Below, piece after piece: positions 3,340 through 35,838 of a stretch of 37,206 bases of DNA. Within the stretch, counting starts at the first letter, position 1; the number at the start of each line of letters is the position of its first letter. The translations under genes were made by a program, and so were the position numbers. The notes below the pieces were generated by a model. It was not told the DNA's origin. It worked only from the letters and a program-made list of their open reading frames with translations, and searched no databases. Source of the DNA: a virus (lineage: Duplodnaviria > Heunggongvirae > Uroviricota > Caudoviricetes); the IMG/VR virus record IMGVR_UViG_2737471853_000011, positions 1 to 37,206 of that record; one strand, 5' to 3'.

Positions 3340-3916
3340 TATCTGGTGCGCTGGATATGTCCACAGATTCCAGCGCATCGAGATAATCCAGCCATAGGTT
3401 ATATTGCTCTTTTTCTGTCTCTGTCAATCGTCCTAATGCGGCCTTGCCGGGCCATTGCTTTTTGTTCATATAGTCATTGGCCTGGTCAGTTCTCGACAGC
3501 TTTTCTCCTTCGGCAGTAGCGACATTGGCTGCGTGCTGAGCTTCTACATCTGTTACCCACTGTTCCCCATTCCATTTATCATATAATGATGTAGGGGCAA
3601 TGGGTGTTGTATGAGTGGGATAATCGCCAAGTGTCGTTACTTGAACTTGTTGCATCGTCTCTGTGCTATAAACGGTTTGGCCTCTTTTGTCGATAATGTA
3701 TATCCATGATGTAAGGTCTGCTGTTCGACAAATAGCAAATCCGTCTTTGCTTTCGCCAGGTGCGTCAGTGCATGAATTCGCAGGAATGCCGACACCAACG
3801 GGTAAGTATTCAACCGTTGAAGAAAGATATTCGCGCGTCTCACAATCATAATTGTAAACAGTAATATCACCTGATTTCGTGGAAATACCATTATTATTCA
3901 GTATCGCTTTAGTCAT
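3311..3916 (-). CDS. Tail fibre assembly protein (expressed orientation)
   Basis: 201-aa ORF directly downstream of the fibre gene with start overlapping the fibre stop. Confidence 0.8.
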
Positions 3917-4677
3917 TATGCAGCCCTCACAATATAATTAAATGCGATATTACGTGGACGGCTAACAATGGAGTTGCCAGAGTCAACATTCAATTTATTC
4001 ATCGCTGTACTACCCGTAATTGTCTGAGACTGTAATGCAGTTGTGGATGGTGATTTATCCCCTTGGAATGGGCTAAGGTCATAAGCAGTTGCTGTTGCTA
4101 ATACTACCGTTGCCTGCGTGTCATTCTTCCAGTCAACCCCGATATAAGTACCTCCCTGCGCAGAAAGCAGCGAACGTCCAGTATCAACCCCGCGTCCGTC
4201 ATCCCATCCACGAATAAACTCCCCCCGCAGGTCTGGAAGTTTCATGTCTGGATAGGCTAGTGCCAGTTTAGGGTACTGGGAGGCAGTGAACGCGGCTCCG
4301 TTGCATTTAAGCCATCCCTTTGGTGGCGTTGCTGACGGCCACGGAATGGGGACGCCAACCGGCAATGCAGAACCTTCTCCCAAACCAAGGTTTTCGAGAG
4401 CCGTTTTCACCGTGCCATCCGATTTGATATCGCCAAACGGATTCTTGCGGCTTAACAGCAGCGCACGAAGCGCTGTAAGTAGCTGGTCATGCCGCCCCTT
4501 CTCCAGGCTGGCACCGGATGCCTCCACAACACTGCAAAGTTCCTCCTGCAACATGTCAAAGTAGTCATCATCCAGATCGGTGGCAGGTGTGCCGGTCTGG
4601 GGGTTACCACGGGTAAAACCGTTCTTACCCGCGCCGAACTTATCCTTCTGCGCGGTTTTCGTATCTATACGATGCAT
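3916..4677 (-). CDS. Tail fibre protein (constant N-terminus 4401..4677, variable C-terminus inside the invertible segment)
   Basis: 253-aa ORF; crossover site lies in frame at residues ~93-101 (ALENLGLGE). Confidence 0.85.
4375..4400. repeat. Invertase crossover site (gix/hix-like), distal, inside the tail fibre gene
   Basis: TTCTCCCAAACCAAGGTTTTCGAGAG; internal dyad symmetry around a central AA; inverted relative to 2554..2579. Confidence 0.75.
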
Positions 4678-4680
4678 GGA

Positions 4681-5265
4681 TTACTCCGGATATTTAAAAA
4701 TTACGTAGGTATGCGACGGGCAGAGTTTGTTAAGCACACACTCGACAACGGTGTCGCCCCAGATACGCAGTGCGGAATCACAGGGATCGCCACATGTCAT
4801 CCAGGTGGTGTTGGTGTCGGCTGGCATGTTGACCTGCCAGTAATACCGCCATTCCGGCGCATTCACCGCGTCAGTACAGGCCGATGAGCAGGTGAACGTG
4901 CTTTTGTCGTATCGCGTGATGGTGGCGTCTGGTCTGCCCAGGGCAGCAAGCTGTGCAAGGTAAAAATCCTCATTGATGCCGCCCGCCAGGTTAACCTTCG
5001 CATCCAGTCGTTGCTGACGCTGGCGAAGGGTCTGTGTCCCTGCGGGAATACATTCATCCGGCAGGCCGCACAGACGCTCCCAGCGATTTATCAGTTCGGT
5101 GGTGGTGCGCGGATCCAGCTCCCGCATCAGGGCATCCGCACGCTGATGAACGCGGGTTAATGACTGTGCCGCACCGGCAATCGCCGGATCGCTGGCTGAC
5201 CACGCCGGACCGGGCGGCAGCAGTGCCGACAACAGACGGATGTAATCATCGTTTGTCACGTCCAT
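4681..5265 (-). CDS. Tail/baseplate protein (Mu gp48-like, DUF2313-like)
   Basis: 194-aa ORF between baseplate J-like gene and tail fibre. Confidence 0.6.
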
Positions 5266-19302: not shown

Positions 19303-21036
19303 TTAAAGCGAGCGGATCCCGTAGGACTCAATGTGGTCGGACAGCGTGTCTTCTTTCTCATACAGCATGGCTCTGCCAACCGCCATAATCAGCGCAACTG
19401 CACCATCGATTTTGTTTTCCGCCTGCTCTTTGACGGGCTTCACCACATCATCGTTACCCGGAATGGTTTTGCCGACCACGTTGCCGATACACCAGGTCAT
19501 GATGGGATTGCCATCATGATGAAAGCGCCCCGATTCAATTGCCGCTTCCAGCTCTTTCATCGGGTCGGACATGTTGGTGTAGTTCTGAATGATGGTGATG
19601 GGATTCAGGTCTTCATCAGCAAGGTCATGTGACAGCCCGGTCGCCCCGAAGGGGTCGATGGGTGACTCGCTGACCGGGCTGATTTTGTTCGCCGCTTTGG
19701 CCTCTTCGAGGATGTAGCGATAATCCACCTCTGCACCATCGGTAACGGTCAGGACGCCCATTTCCACCCATTTCTGAAAGCGTTCGGCTGTCCGGCGATC
19801 TTCATTTTTCTCGACGCTGTACACCGTGTCATACGGTACCCAGAAACGCGGGGCTACACTGTAGTAATGCGTTTTACCGTCAATCTCGCGGGTATAAAGT
19901 CGCGCCATGCTGTTCATATCCAGCTTACGCGCCAGGTCAAAGGCCAGAATGCACGGCTGCCCCTCGAACTGCTCAAGGGTCAGTGATTTATCCTCGCAGC
20001 TCTGCCAGCTCACCAGGTTGAAATACGCCGAACGCGCCGACACCCAGATATTGAGGTGTTTTGTTTTAAAGACGTTTGCCAGACGGGCGTTATTTTTCGC
20101 ACGCTGCTGCTGACTTAACAAAAATTCGCGATAAACCGACACGCCAATATTTGGATTGGCTTTTTCCAGCACCTGCGGGTCGGTCCAGTCGTCTCCTTCA
20201 TCAACGGTATAGATGATCCCGAACAGTTCATCGTTAGGCACCGAGCCGTTGAGCATCTCGATGACTTCCCGCCGCTTGTCGTAGCACGGCCCCTCAATGT
20301 TGTACCCGGCGGTAGTGATGGCCCACATCAGTGGCTGACGTCGCGCCCCCATCCCGGTAAGCATTGTGGTATAAAGCGCATCGGTGGCATGCTCGTGATA
20401 TTCATCAACCACGGCACAGTGGGGTGATGAACCATCACCGGGGTTGCCGATCAGCGGTTCAAACCGCGCGCCATCCTCCGGACGGTTCATGTTTGAGGCG
20501 TTAACCTCAATCCCGAACGCTTCCGTCAGCATGGGTGTGCGTTTACACATCAGTCGCGCCGGGCGAAAGACTTCCCACGCCTGTTTCTCTGTCGTGGCAC
20601 CGGAATACACTTCCGCGCCAAACTCGTTATCACAGGCAAAACAATACAGGGCAACACCGGCAGAGATTGCCGATTTGCCGTTCTTACGGGGGATTTCGGT
20701 ATACACCTCCCTGAAGCGGCGCAGCCGGGAGCCTTTATTGACCCAGCCAAACGCACAGCAGATCACAAAGAGCTGCCACGGCTCCAGCGTGATGGGCATC
20801 CGTTTGAATGCCCACTCACCCTTGGTGTGCGGCAACAGCTGAATAAATTTCGCGGCCCGTTCAGCCAGGTCCTTGTCGAAGCGGTAACGAAACGACTTAC
20901 TTTTTTCCGCCATCAGGTCATCAAGATGGCGCTGGCAGGCCTGAATCACAAACTGGCAGGCCACAATCTTTCCGCGCACGACATCACGGGCATACTGATT
21001 GGCTGCATTTACATTGGGGTAAGATTTCCGGCTCAT
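19303..21036 (-). CDS. Terminase large subunit
   Basis: 577-aa ORF with ATPase and nuclease-type regions. Confidence 0.9.
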
Positions 21037-21536
21037 GATTCGATAATTTTCAGAAACGGGTTAGTGGCTTTCTTCTGCCCCGCCAGGCCAATCAGACGCT
21101 GGCGGCTGCTGGGGTCGAGTCCGAGCATTGCCCCCGTGCTGCTCATCTCGGACTCCTGTTCTTTCTTGGCGGTCAGCTCCGGATTTTTGACCATACCGCC
21201 CATTGCACCGGTGATGGTGTTGCCCTGGCTGGCAATATTTTTCACGGCACGTCGCCAGAACTCATAGGCCACACACCACCGCTCAAGCACCGCGAGGTCA
21301 GTCACGCACAGCAGGCCCTGACCGCAGAGTTCTTTGGTTGTCAGTTGCCACATGATCGTGGCGAGAGGGAGATCTTCTTCAACGAACCACTCCGGTGGCT
21401 CAACACCTTTGATGGGCGTAAAAACAGGTTCATCTTTGTTCAAGGCTCGCTTGCCGGGGTTTCCGGCCAGCGCCTTGCGCGCCGTTGGATTGGGGCGACG
21501 CCCGGAACGCCCCGCCGTTCCAGCCATATGCGGCAC
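21033..21536 (-). CDS. Terminase small subunit
   Basis: 167-aa ORF overlapping the large subunit start. Confidence 0.75.
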
Positions 21537-21652
21537 TCCTGGTTAAATTTCATTTTTCGCGGGTATAAAAAAACGATGGGGCGGGCAGTCCGGAAGACGT
21601 CAAGTCACAGAGATTTGACCCGCCCCTCCCCACTGGCAGTTGAGAATTATTA

Positions 21653-22003
21653 TCACTTTAGCCGTTCACGGGCCGTCTTCGCCTTATGACACGGCCAGCA
21701 CAGGCTCTGCAGATTGCAGTCTGCATCAGTGCCGCCATGCGCTTTAGGGATGATGTGGTCAACGGTTTTCGCCTCACGCACCACACCGACACGCAGGCAC
21801 AACTGACACAGGCCTTTGTCACGCTTGAGCACACGTTCACGGATAACATCCCATTTCGAACCATAACCGCGCTGGTGTCGGGACTGGCCTGGCTTGTATT
21901 GCTTCCAGCCTTCGCTTTTGTGGCTTTCGCAATAGCCTGACGGGTCAGTCGTCGTATGGTGGCAGCCGCGAACACGGCAGGCTCTAGGTATCAGTGCTGG
22001 CAT
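21653..22003 (-). CDS. HNH endonuclease (terminase-associated)
   Basis: Cys pairs CxxC...CxxC with HxxxH-like motif (DHIIPKAHGG); directly upstream of terminase. Confidence 0.85.
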   Translation of the reverse strand: MPALIPRACRVRGCHHTTTDPSGYCESHKSEGWKQYKPGQSRHQRGYGSKWDVIRERVLKRDKGLCQLCLRVGVVREAKTVDHIIPKAHGGTDADCNLQSLCWPCHKAKTARERLK

Positions 22004-22130
22004 AAAATACTCTCTTTAATCTGATAGACATATTTGACAAAAGAGATTCATTTTTCTCTTTCACTCTTTCCTTTATGAGAAAAATCTGATAACAAGGTTC
22101 TAATAAAAGTAACTAAACACAGGTTATAAC

Positions 22131-22505
22131 ATGAGTGAAAAGAAAACCGTTGCTTATCGCATTGAGGGATGCGAAAACATCAAAATGATTGGAAACAAAT
22201 CATTTGGTGCTGATGTTGGTTATGAAATTATTGATTCAGCTAATACTTTTCTTTCCAACAATATTCATTACTCAGCAGAAACAGTTCGGCTTATAAAAGA
22301 AGCAGAAATCGCCATACAAAATAACTTAAGTGAAATTAACGATAAGCTTGGTGCAGAGAAGCTACAAGAAATATACGACATTTTAAATGATATCAAGTTT
22401 AATCAGTCATCAACACCTCTACAACTGATGGAGCGATTTTACTCAGCTGGTGCAAACACATTAACTTTATGGCCTATTATTCAGAGTCTCCTAAATAGTC
22501 TTTAA
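22131..22505 (+). CDS. Hypothetical protein (124 aa), AT-rich accessory gene on opposite strand
   Basis: Clean ORF in a low-GC island between HNH and the spanin genes; no recognisable motif. Confidence 0.6.
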   Translation: MSEKKTVAYRIEGCENIKMIGNKSFGADVGYEIIDSANTFLSNNIHYSAETVRLIKEAEIAIQNNLSEINDKLGAEKLQEIYDILNDIKFNQSSTPLQLMERFYSAGANTLTLWPIIQSLLNSL

Positions 22506-22583
22506 TATTACAAATCCACTTTGGTTTGAGCATAAATTATAAAGATGTCTAGTAATAGGCATCTTCAATTTAAATTAAAATCT

Positions 22584-22832
22584 TCATCTAGCATTGTTTA
22601 TACTGCGGATAGCCTTTTTATCTCTATTGCACTGCCCTAATGCAGATAACAAACTTGCATTCAGGTCTAGGCTAGCACCATATGTCAGTGGACTAGGTAT
22701 AATTGGAATCGGTGTTTCAGAAGTTAGGGTGGTTGACAGTGGTGCTACTGGGGTGCTCACGTAAACTGTCCGCGTACTTCCGCAACCGGTCAGTAGCGGC
22801 AGCAGGCACAGGATGTGAAGCGCAATCATCAT
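22584..22832 (-). CDS. Outer-membrane spanin Rz1 (lipoprotein), overlapping the 3' end of Rz in another frame
   Basis: Signal peptide MMIALHILCLLPLLTGC with lipobox Cys, Pro-rich mature part; starts inside Rz and extends beyond it. Confidence 0.65.
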   Translation of the reverse strand: MMIALHILCLLPLLTGCGSTRTVYVSTPVAPLSTTLTSETPIPIIPSPLTYGASLDLNASLLSALGQCNRDKKAIRSINNAR

Positions 22833-23109
22833 TCGCAACAGCCACTTTGATATCTTCCTGGGTTCTCTGTGACTCCAGTGCGATTTGTTGTTTTGCATGC
22901 TGGCTAGCCTCCAGTGCTGTATTTACGATTTGTATTGATTGCAGGACGTTATTGGTAATGGCAGTTGCCGATTCAGCATTTCGTACAGCCTCATCAGCAC
23001 GCTCCTTTTCGTGCTGATATTTGCTGTAGTAATGCCCGACAGACCAGATGAAGGAACCAATGACGGTAACAAAGAAGGCAACAATAACCAGCTTATATCT
23101 CAGCTTCAT
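22717..23109 (-). CDS. Inner-membrane spanin Rz
   Basis: N-terminal membrane helix then coiled-coil; follows endolysin. Confidence 0.75.
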   Translation of the reverse strand: MKLRYKLVIVAFFVTVIGSFIWSVGHYYSKYQHEKERADEAVRNAESATAITNNVLQSIQIVNTALEASQHAKQQIALESQRTQEDIKVAVANDDCASHPVPAAATDRLRKYADSLREHPSSTTVNHPNF

Positions 23110-24174: not shown

Positions 24175-24996
24175 ATGAACTTTTCTAATACCAAAAAAAA
24201 CAATTTAACAAAGAAATGTCAAGTTAGGGCTTTTAATGTGAACCTTGACGGGAAGAGTAATTTATTTCAGCAAATATCAACAAATAATAAATTTGTACAG
24301 GGTTCCATAATCCAGTTATCAACTAACAGGCATTTAAAATTAAAAGAATTTAGCACTAAAGGTAATATCCATTACTTACATTTTTCTTTATACAATCCGA
24401 AAGAAGAAGTGTCGATTACCCCAAATAAACCTAACACTAAAGATTTGTTAGATGTTGAAAATTTTGACAATTTACATGCCTTCTTTATGGTTAAGGATAA
24501 TCAAATTGCTTCACTCCTTCAAATATCCACTAACTGGAGTGAAGTCAAAATAGCAAAAATCTTCAAATGCTATGGCATAGATATTATACCGTCAGCTATC
24601 TTAAAGAAAAATGTAATCCAAAAAGTCAAAGATGATGGTTTGCGCGCTGTACATGTGAATTTCAACGTGCATGAATCAGATTTTGTTAACAAGCCTAGTT
24701 TCTTATCTGTGTTTGTAAAAAAAGAGCCAAAATTAAAACAAACAGGAATAAGTGGCCATTTTACTATCGATGCCAGAGGAAACCCTGCCGTTGCTGCATC
24801 AATTGAAAACAATCCGACGCCTTGGATATCTGATTTAAACAGTGACTTTTACTTTGAAACTAAAAAAGGAGAGAAAATCACTAGCGATGACATGAAACTT
24901 ACAAAGATTTACTACACGTTACCATACGGCTCGCAAACAATTTCCAGCAAATATGCTCATGAAATTTTAGAGCATTTTGTCACAAATGAGTTATAA
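24175..24996 (+). CDS. Hypothetical soluble protein (273 aa), first gene of AT-rich accessory cassette
   Basis: Low-GC ORF on the opposite strand to all flanking phage genes; no recognised catalytic motif. Confidence 0.75.
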   Translation: MNFSNTKKNNLTKKCQVRAFNVNLDGKSNLFQQISTNNKFVQGSIIQLSTNRHLKLKEFSTKGNIHYLHFSLYNPKEEVSITPNKPNTKDLLDVENFDNLHAFFMVKDNQIASLLQISTNWSEVKIAKIFKCYGIDIIPSAILKKNVIQKVKDDGLRAVHVNFNVHESDFVNKPSFLSVFVKKEPKLKQTGISGHFTIDARGNPAVAASIENNPTPWISDLNSDFYFETKKGEKITSDDMKLTKIYYTLPYGSQTISSKYAHEILEHFVTNEL

Positions 24997-25020
24997 TATA
25001 CTTAAAAACGGGGAGGCCAT

Positions 25021-25503
25021 ATGTTTAAAGATTATAACTGGACGGGAATTATAATTACCACAGGAAACTTCCTAGCCTCCTTCTTTTTCTCAAAATATCT
25101 CACAAACAGCTTAACAAATAACAATGACGCATTAAATCTTGTTGCAAATGTTTTCTCAATCCTATCCGGTTTTTTATTGCTAGTTATTACTATGTCTGGT
25201 GAGAACTCCTCAATTTCGAAATCACTTAATGCATTAGACAAAGCCAACCAGAGCACTCGATTTTATATGCGCTTTGTAAAAAGCTATACTCTATTCTTGA
25301 TGTATATAATTACACTTGCATTAATATTTGTATTTTATCTTTTATCCAAGGATAAAACACATTCAGGTATTTATTTTGAATATACAAAAACCACTATTGC
25401 ATATTCAATCTCATTTTTAACATGTTTCTCATTCATACAATCAACTTTCATTCCATTGAAAATAAAGGAATTGTTTGAAGAGAAGAAAAACATGAATACT
25501 TAA
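25021..25503 (+). CDS. Hypothetical membrane protein (160 aa, four predicted transmembrane helices), second gene of cassette
   Basis: GGGGAGG RBS 7 nt upstream; four hydrophobic stretches of 19-25 residues. Confidence 0.75.
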   Translation: MFKDYNWTGIIITTGNFLASFFFSKYLTNSLTNNNDALNLVANVFSILSGFLLLVITMSGENSSISKSLNALDKANQSTRFYMRFVKSYTLFLMYIITLALIFVFYLLSKDKTHSGIYFEYTKTTIAYSISFLTCFSFIQSTFIPLKIKELFEEKKNMNT

Positions 25504-35762: not shown

Positions 35763-35838
35763 TGGTGCCGATAATAGGAGTCGAACCTACGACCTTCGCA
35801 TTACGAATGCGCTGCTCTACCAACTGAGCTATATCGGC
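35763..35838 (-). tRNA. thrW: tRNA-Thr (anticodon CGT), thrW-type, with encoded CCA
   Basis: Reverse complement GCCGATATAGCTCAGTTGGTAGAGCAGCGCATTCGTAATGCG..GGTTCGACTCCTATTATCGGCACCA has cloverleaf features and a T-loop. Confidence 0.95.

Follow-up and report, generated by a model that had tools for sequence, protein, structure and literature searches.

A plus-strand gene for a 124-aa protein, lying between the packaging and lysis modules of an E. coli prophage, is very probably a moron: a horizontally acquired low-GC cassette of ~0.6 kb in which a single CDS is preceded by an upstream region and followed by a hairpin. The stretch that we analyzed, hereafter the window, is the 37,206-nt DNA of IMG/VR record IMGVR_UViG_2737471853_000011. 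Morons in the bor/iss slot of lambdoid-type prophages are a familiar type of feature. The novelty lies in the cargo, a family with a confidently predicted fold for which Pfam, PHROGs, NCBIfam and PADLOC offer no model, and the PDB and BFVD no structural neighbor.

The low-GC cassette and its setting

The window holds an SfI/SfII-like E. coli prophage integrated beside tRNA-Thr(CGT) (35763..35838), with proA adjoining; this tRNA was the sole match in an Rfam scan of the window. In the packaging and head genes, it shares 95-98% identity with the induced coliphages vB_EcoM-689R6 and vB_EcoM-720R4 and with Shigella phages SfI, SfII and SfIV. Because the records of the Shigella phages start or stop at window position ~21652, the genome end (cos) would be located between the genes for the HNH endonuclease and the small terminase. 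In lambdoid phages with a Q antiterminator, late transcription proceeds from the holin gene across the spanin genes into HNH and terminase. The features of the region are as follows.

19303..21036, minus strand: large terminase, left of the 124-aa gene
21033..21536, minus strand: P27-type (P27-family) small terminase, left of the 124-aa gene
21653..22003, minus strand: HNH endonuclease of the packaging module, the left flank, outside the cassette (Pfam HNH, E 8.5e-15; phrog_144, E 5.8e-44)
22004..22130, plus strand: upstream intergenic region, 127 bp, AT-rich, with presumed promoter/regulatory signals (sequence reading)
22007..22599, no strand assigned: low-GC cargo cassette, the variable segment of the HNH-spanin slot (blastn against the empty-slot prophage L035)
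22073..22092, plus strand: imperfect palindrome TTATGAGA-N4-TCTGATAA, candidate regulator-binding or promoter element (conserved upstream block)
22121..22123, plus strand: Shine-Dalgarno-like AGG, 7 nt 5' of the ATG (sequence reading)
22131..22505, plus strand: CDS with ATG start for the acidic, predicted cytoplasmic 124-aa protein (ORF, homologues, selection, AlphaFold2)
22533..22572, no strand assigned: stem-loop between the convergent 124-aa gene and lysC, terminator-like and possibly bidirectional (RNA fold)
22584..22898, minus strand: Rz1-like o-spanin LysC, the right flank, embedded in Rz (PF23793 LysC, E 2.4e-14; phrog_456); RefSeq coordinates, taken from L001, are 22584..22832
22717..23109, minus strand: Rz (phrog_214, E 6e-45)

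Beyond Rz, the minus strand continues with a GH24 lysozyme and a lambda-family holin. From the HNH and terminase genes to the Rz/Rz1 spanins, the 124-aa gene is the sole gene on the plus strand. The first-pass annotation of this DNA had described a plus-strand ORF of 124 aa in a low-GC stretch, preceded by 127 bp of AT-rich sequence and interrupting minus-strand late genes. We confirmed the ORF at the coordinates listed, with a GC content of 31-34% against about 55% in the flanks, as well as the AT-rich region 5' of it and the minus-strand neighbors on both sides.

The change in composition is abrupt. Measured in 200-bp windows, GC was 0.305-0.345 over 22000-22699, 0.555-0.60 over 21100-21999 (HNH/terminase genes) and 0.45-0.51 in the spanin and lysozyme genes; the slot itself has a GC content of 0.31 versus about 0.55-0.56 in the packaging genes. 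Low GC was found in all members of the protein's family that we examined (0.32-0.39).

The edges of the cassette were set by comparison with L035, a sister prophage whose slot is empty. Homology stops at window position 22006, at the HNH start codon, and restarts at 22600, within lysC and ~15 nt from its 3' end, so that the window has 593 bp where L035 has 63 bp; the flanks are 92-95% identical. Comparison with L002, L020 and L036 put the breakpoints at similar places.

The right edge of the variable segment thus falls inside the LysC reading frame, with the last ~5 lysC codons (22584..22599) within the segment and right breakpoints at 22600-22627 against L002, L020, L035 and L036. Differing LysC C-termini therefore accompany differing cargos.

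The 124-aa ORF and its family

The probability that 124 codons at 32% GC stay free of stops by chance is ~5e-5, and this value, together with the conserved full-length homologues described here, places the ORF beyond chance. The exact protein is public as "MULTISPECIES: hypothetical protein [Enterobacteriaceae]" and is a hypothetical protein in RefSeq (WP_040091768.1); its 90%-identity cluster is represented on well over 1000 contigs. We searched for homologues exhaustively with HMMER over 1.84 billion representatives and with three indexed searches, two of them with profiles. The indexed and exhaustive searches returned full-length relatives of 122-145 aa with identities of 72, 71, 70, 69, 57, 51, 40, 34 and ~25-33%; overall, full-length relatives span 25-99% identity. 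They come from E. coli, Salmonella, Citrobacter, Atlantibacter, Pantoea and metagenomes. The family amounts to only about a dozen clusters in these searches, and none of them has an added domain or a name. Three long matches (P0014, P0015 and P0019) are repeat proteins and were rejected as false positives.

Between the window and L003/L004, pN was 0.18 at a saturated pS of 0.78-0.79. The dN/dS ratio was 0.245 for L003 versus L004, 0.19 for L012 versus L017 and 0.18 for the window versus L014. These substitution patterns indicate that the family is under purifying selection and that the 124-aa ORF is a real gene.

Cargo exchange at the HNH-spanin junction

We compared the slot among sister prophages, which match the window in the terminase and HNH genes at about 94-97% identity, and in two induced coliphages. 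Its contents were as follows.

L035: empty, 63 bp where the window has 593 bp
L021: iss, on the same strand as the 124-aa gene and convergent with Rz
L020: GrlR-family gene
L002: 169-aa protein of phrog_18591
Phage 689R6: hypothetical protein of ~168 aa
L022 (NZ_CM166355.1), 3744-4719: 1TM-TIR and 2TM-TIR pair (PADLOC PDLC02977/PDLC02978, E 7e-79 and 2.5e-57)
L037: 83-aa hypothetical protein
L038: DUF6979 protein and a 67-aa protein
L036: 418 bp with no annotated gene
Isolated phage vB_EcoM-720R4: apparently empty, assuming the usual HNH gene of 351 bp (the record annotates 186 bp)

The GC content of the sister slot contents is 0.35-0.44, below that of the phage backbone. Comparison showed no homology between the phrog_18591 protein and the 124-aa protein, and it was rejected as a homologue. 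These comparisons document the HNH-spanin junction of SfI/SfII-like prophages as a cargo hot spot, at which a serum-resistance gene, a regulator, a validated TIR defense system and several unknowns have been exchanged. Given this mix, the unknown cargos, the 124-aa gene among them, are reasonable and cheap candidates for phage-defense and lysogenic-conversion screens. Because close sister prophages and an isolated phage have slots that are empty or filled otherwise, the 124-aa gene is dispensable for phage growth.

These data bear on the moron reading that the first-pass annotation had offered, and its structural part stands: a single gene of deviant GC lies on the opposite strand at a module junction, the same slot in sister prophages is empty or holds other cargo, and a hairpin follows the gene. 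Expression from the prophage and a lysogenic-conversion, anti-defense or exclusion function, which that annotation also proposed, are putative. Hendrix and Juhala reportedly described morons as promoter-gene-terminator units of deviant composition that are present in some but not all related phages. The cassette shares with the morons of lambdoid and HK97-like phages the presence/absence polymorphism, sharp edges, deviant GC, 3' hairpin and opposite strand, whereas a promoter and expression in the lysogen are only presumed for the 124-aa gene.

The closest parallel in position is bor of lambda, reportedly characterized by Barondess and Beckwith as a serum-resistance lipoprotein gene that lies downstream of Rz, opposite to the late operon, and is expressed in the lysogen; iss is the homologue of lambda bor. 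The 124-aa gene resembles lambda bor and E. coli iss in its slot and orientation (downstream of Rz/Rz1, on the opposite strand) and in being a single low-GC accessory gene. Its product, in contrast, has no similarity to Bor or Iss in sequence or fold, is acidic and soluble, lacks a lipobox and a signal peptide and has no Pfam match above threshold; neither the protein nor the 16 family members matched the Bor/Iss Pfam family. An acidic, soluble protein of this kind cannot function at the outer membrane in the way that Bor and Iss do.

The TIR pair of L022 belongs to the Rst 2TM-1TM-TIR anti-phage system, which was described from P2/P4 hotspots (PMC9122126) and is found here in an SfI/SfII-like prophage. 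It occupies the same HNH-lysis slot as the 124-aa gene, and at 0.41 its slot GC is likewise lower than that of the prophage backbone. Rst, however, consists of two genes on the late strand whose products have transmembrane and TIR domains, and the 124-aa protein has neither these domains nor a PADLOC match.

Position and orientation across family loci

At all 14 loci examined, the family gene is found where the lysis module meets the packaging module, on the strand opposite to the late genes, and in most of them its 3' end points toward the last gene of the lysis strand. Three kinds of lysis cassette and several types of terminase occur among these loci.

Window: HNH and P27 terminase; lysis by lambda-type holin/GH24/Rz-LysC
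L004, L006, L007: HNH and P27 terminase; lysis by two holins/GH19
L003, L005, L031: lambda-like DUF1441/GpA terminase; GH19 lysis cassette
L008, L009 (Citrobacter): DUF1441/GpA; GH19 lysis
L015: P27 terminase and a glycosyltransferase moron; GH19 lysis
L017, L012 (Pantoea): Terminase_2 fragment, or Mu_F/portal_3 heads; lysis by holin_2/lysozyme/Rz
L028, L029, L030, L033 (IMG/VR): orientation only, a single plus-strand ORF surrounded by minus-strand ORFs
L010 (Atlantibacter): apparently decayed remnant beside fliE, with terminase and Rz fragments only, in an order unlike L017/L018

The window and L004/L007 align without a break from terminase through HNH to the gene, at 76% identity, yet in L003/L005 this allele of the gene is found with a lambda-like terminase, so both flanks of the gene have been reshuffled by recombination. 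A related trace is seen in E. coli IAI39 (L039, NC_011750.1), where a truncated HNH pseudogene at 2455-2604 adjoins a lambda-like DUF1441/large-terminase pair. This pseudogene is a recombination scar of an exchange between two types of packaging module at the junction.

The window has no upstream companion gene. Plus-strand ORFs do precede the gene at distant loci (68, 148 and 172 aa), but they match differing families or none and so point to no shared partner, and on these matches a conserved two-gene system was rejected. The 68-aa protein is a HEAT-repeat protein (Pfam HEAT, E 8e-09) found in Citrobacter/E. coli at L008 7774-7980 and L009 4847-5053, 20 bp upstream of the family gene on the same strand; in that subclade only, it may form a two-gene operon with the distant family member.

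Several other arrangements were observed among the family loci. A 76-aa ORF on the late strand (10418-10648 in L003, L004 and L005; 6473-6703 in L031) lies between the last lysis gene and the family gene at loci with GH19-type lysis; the last lysis gene in L031 is a lipobox o-spanin, and the ORF has no counterpart in the window. In Atlantibacter hermannii (L010/L011, 4835-11142), the apparently decayed remnant lies between tusA and fliE with its family member intact, and the short contig L018 carries a different family member, also beside fliE. Finally, in record IMGVR_UViG_2541047937_000003 (L023/L026), a 2.7-kb block that spans the small terminase, HNH and 124-aa genes as well as the spanins and lysozyme is present as two copies in inverted orientation; the copies are 99.96% identical and separated by a spacer of ~2 kb that includes sequence from the tail-fiber region. 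They represent either an assembly artifact or an inversion/duplication.

Candidate signals around the gene

A strict sigma-70 consensus promoter was not matched in the 127-bp upstream region. Alignment of the family's upstream regions showed that the start codon is kept and that AGG(A/T)T, which contains the Shine-Dalgarno-like AGG, is invariant. The imperfect palindrome lies inside a block, CTTTnCTTTATGAGAAnAATCTGATA, that the window has in common with L003, L004 and L005 (loci of 70%-identity homologues) despite diverged flanks. It occurs once in the window, and since 26 of 100 shuffled sequences gave at least one match, it is not significant alone. We also considered it as a CI operator and rejected this, as the window has no second copy and the palindrome differs from the immunity-region sequence and operators.

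Downstream, folding of the RNA of 22500-22590 gave a hairpin with a 10-bp inner and a 6-bp outer stem (MFE -16.6 kcal/mol, z = -3.24). Its U-tract is weak, and a consensus terminator scan made no call for it. Comparable hairpins lie 3' of the gene in most family loci that were folded, and that of L015 is canonical.

Features and predicted fold of the protein

The window protein has a pI of 4.8, and the family ranges from 4.6 to 6.7. Sequence reading revealed no transmembrane segment, and no signal peptide or lipobox either, the N-terminus (MSEKKTVAYRIEGCEN) being polar and charged with no hydrophobic h-region. The most hydrophobic 19-residue stretch is at the C-terminus in all members; it stays below transmembrane level in 14 of 16 and reaches a hydropathy of 0.86 in the window protein.

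With an alignment of 16 diverse members, AlphaFold2 returned a model with pLDDT 90.9 and pTM 0.77, while an alignment of seven sequences had given a pLDDT of 58. The fold was read from the secondary-structure string of this predicted model, which has strands in two repeats (7-12, 18-20, 23-25 and 29-34, 40-42, 45-47) followed by helices at 49-64, 66-73, 75-90, 96-105 and 114-123. The protein is thus confidently predicted to form a two-turn beta-helix (residues 7-47) and then a helical bundle (49-123). The most conserved part of the sequence is a C-terminal motif, S-x-G-A-N-T-L-T-x-W-P, located at a turn of the model. In an alignment of 13 sequences P115 is invariant and S105, A108, N109, L111 and W114 are near-invariant; in wider alignments, only N109 remains above 90%. 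The conserved loops are at residues 72-77 and 106-115. The conserved G/N/W/P residues could be purely structural, shaping a helix-turn, rather than a binding site.

Remote-homology and structure searches, named as a check by the first-pass annotation, gave full-length relatives and no functional homologue by sequence or fold. Scans of Pfam, PHROGs, NCBIfam and PADLOC gave no family above threshold for the protein or any of the 16 members, these domain libraries detected no DNA-binding or regulatory domain in the protein or its family, and PADLOC-DB v2.0.0 assigned the window protein no defense family at E <= 1. Foldseek against PDB and BFVD returned nothing at E <= 0.001. The four-helix-bundle membrane localization domain MLD (PF11647) of bacterial toxins matched neither in sequence nor in fold. 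WP_040091768.1 was not found in the literature searched, including the supplements of DefensePredictor, a 2026 defense-prediction paper. A paper on orf10 of the APEC prophage phiv142-3 was rejected as a description of the gene, since its primers do not match the window.

The sole recurrent sub-threshold signal was that of a beta-helix, in the N-terminal 60 residues of 2 of the 16 members, and it agrees with the predicted two-turn repeat. The window protein scored against NosD (PF05048) with E 0.03 and 14.2 bits, below the cut-off of 23.6, and member P0020, also below threshold, gave E 5.6e-4 for NosD; for Beta_helix (PF13229), a sub-threshold E of 2.2e-3 was obtained. The best member scores were 19.8 bits versus 23.6 for NosD and 18.1 versus 25.9 for Beta_helix. 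In the model, residues ~7-47 would resemble right-handed beta-helix repeats of these families, with two turns of three short strands each. The 124-aa protein differs from them in having two turns only, capped by a helical bundle, and in lacking a catalytic or carbohydrate-binding context.

Distribution

Among 5426 complete E. coli genomes, 15 (0.28%) carry the 124-aa gene; the strains come from pig, poultry, human, goat, frog and water, and all copies are chromosomal and at least 99% identical. It was absent from 50,697 GenBank phage records and from 72,556 plasmids, and the GTDB species-representative genomes contain no copy. The family is very small and was found only in Enterobacterales prophages, at this single genomic position.

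The start of the HNH gene is matched in 817 genomes, so that the 124-aa gene is missing in most related prophages. The first-pass annotation had held that absence from all of them, together with a lack of transcription in any condition, would mark a random ORF. Diverged homologues, on the other hand, occupy the same position in other backbones, and because these homologues are under purifying selection, the rarity of the gene among its relatives reflects accessory status, not a random ORF.

Possible functions

Its opposite strand, the hairpin, the conserved upstream block and the analogy with bor and iss suggest that the 124-aa gene would have independent transcription in the lysogen. Late transcription antiterminated by Q would cross it in antisense, and the gene would then be shut down while the prophage itself grows lytically. 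As it shows no enzymatic or nucleic-acid-binding signature, the protein probably exerts its effect through binding to another protein, and the conserved C-terminal helical hairpin would be the likeliest contact surface. The likeliest benefit would be that the lysogen is shielded from other phages, through exclusion or abortive infection; this step draws on what is generally seen with small cytoplasmic prophage morons and on the bona fide defense system that the slot carries in L022. Slot position alone does not favor defense, because the slot also carries iss and GrlR-like cargo. By analogy, then, a lysogen-expressed cytoplasmic protein with a defense or exclusion mechanism is a tentative proposal, and the complete explanation, which joins this mechanism to the moron reading, is likewise one that we hold with low confidence. 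We regard it as rather doubtful that the gene represents a new single-protein family of prophage anti-phage exclusion or abortive-infection factors with a previously undescribed fold, in which the C-terminal hairpin engages a host or phage target or the membrane and antisense transcription silences the gene in the lytic cycle. If a defense factor is what it encodes, it would add one more small single-gene system, which is useful but not field-changing.

The protein might instead serve the host, as a cytoplasmic modulator of regulation, envelope stress, motility or virulence expression that raises the fitness of the lysogen in the gut or host. Sister prophages do carry Iss in the same slot and on the same strand, and a GrlR-family regulator in the slot; the variety of sources of the carrier strains, from pig to water, also fits, and the intact copy in the apparently decayed Atlantibacter remnant by flagellar genes is consistent with a phage-independent host benefit. 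Yet no DNA-binding or regulatory domain was detected, the lack of a signal peptide or lipobox makes the Bor/Iss mode impossible, and presence in 0.28% of complete genomes argues against a broadly useful fitness factor, so that we consider such a lysogenic-conversion role somewhat unlikely. An accessory role in the phage life cycle, be it in lysis timing, as a spanin or holin modulator, as a packaging helper or as a lytic-phase counter-defense protein, would account for the constant proximity of the family to a lysis cassette, with the 3' end toward the last lysis-strand gene, and for the small size and acidity of the protein. Many anti-defense proteins are small and acidic. It is improbable all the same: the gene lies opposite to the late operon at every one of the 14 loci, so that late transcription would be antisense to it; the lysis cassettes beside it are of three unrelated kinds and the terminases of several types; the empty or otherwise filled slots of close sister prophages and of an isolated phage show that it is dispensable; and none of the 50,697 GenBank records of sequenced phages has it.

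That the ORF is spurious or decaying, a functionless reading frame in AT-rich junk DNA, would agree with its rarity, its lack of a functional annotation and the lack of a clear consensus promoter. This reading is effectively refuted by the low probability of the open frame (~5e-5), full-length conservation down to ~25% identity at a dN/dS of ~0.2, a confident predicted fold, and the conserved Shine-Dalgarno-like sequence and start codon. Among the functional readings, defense or exclusion by a lysogen-expressed protein is the one that we put forward, at the tentative level stated above.

A second low-GC island

The window contains a second low-GC island on the plus strand (24175-25503, GC 0.29-0.36), between the gene for antiterminator Q and the holin gene. 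The Q-holin interval is the slot of the toxin genes in Stx phages. In the window it encodes two proteins, one of 273 aa (24175..24996; phrog_23561) and one of 160 aa (25021..25503), whose hydrophobic stretches suggest a membrane protein and which has a sub-threshold match to DUF4064; PADLOC gave no match for either of the two. Other prophages carry different cargo in this interval: a TIGR04255 protein in the sister L020, a 'nucleoid-associated anti-phage protein' in the sister L037, and an NA37 protein together with a 411-aa protein in L008, while in L001 an IS5 is inserted just upstream.
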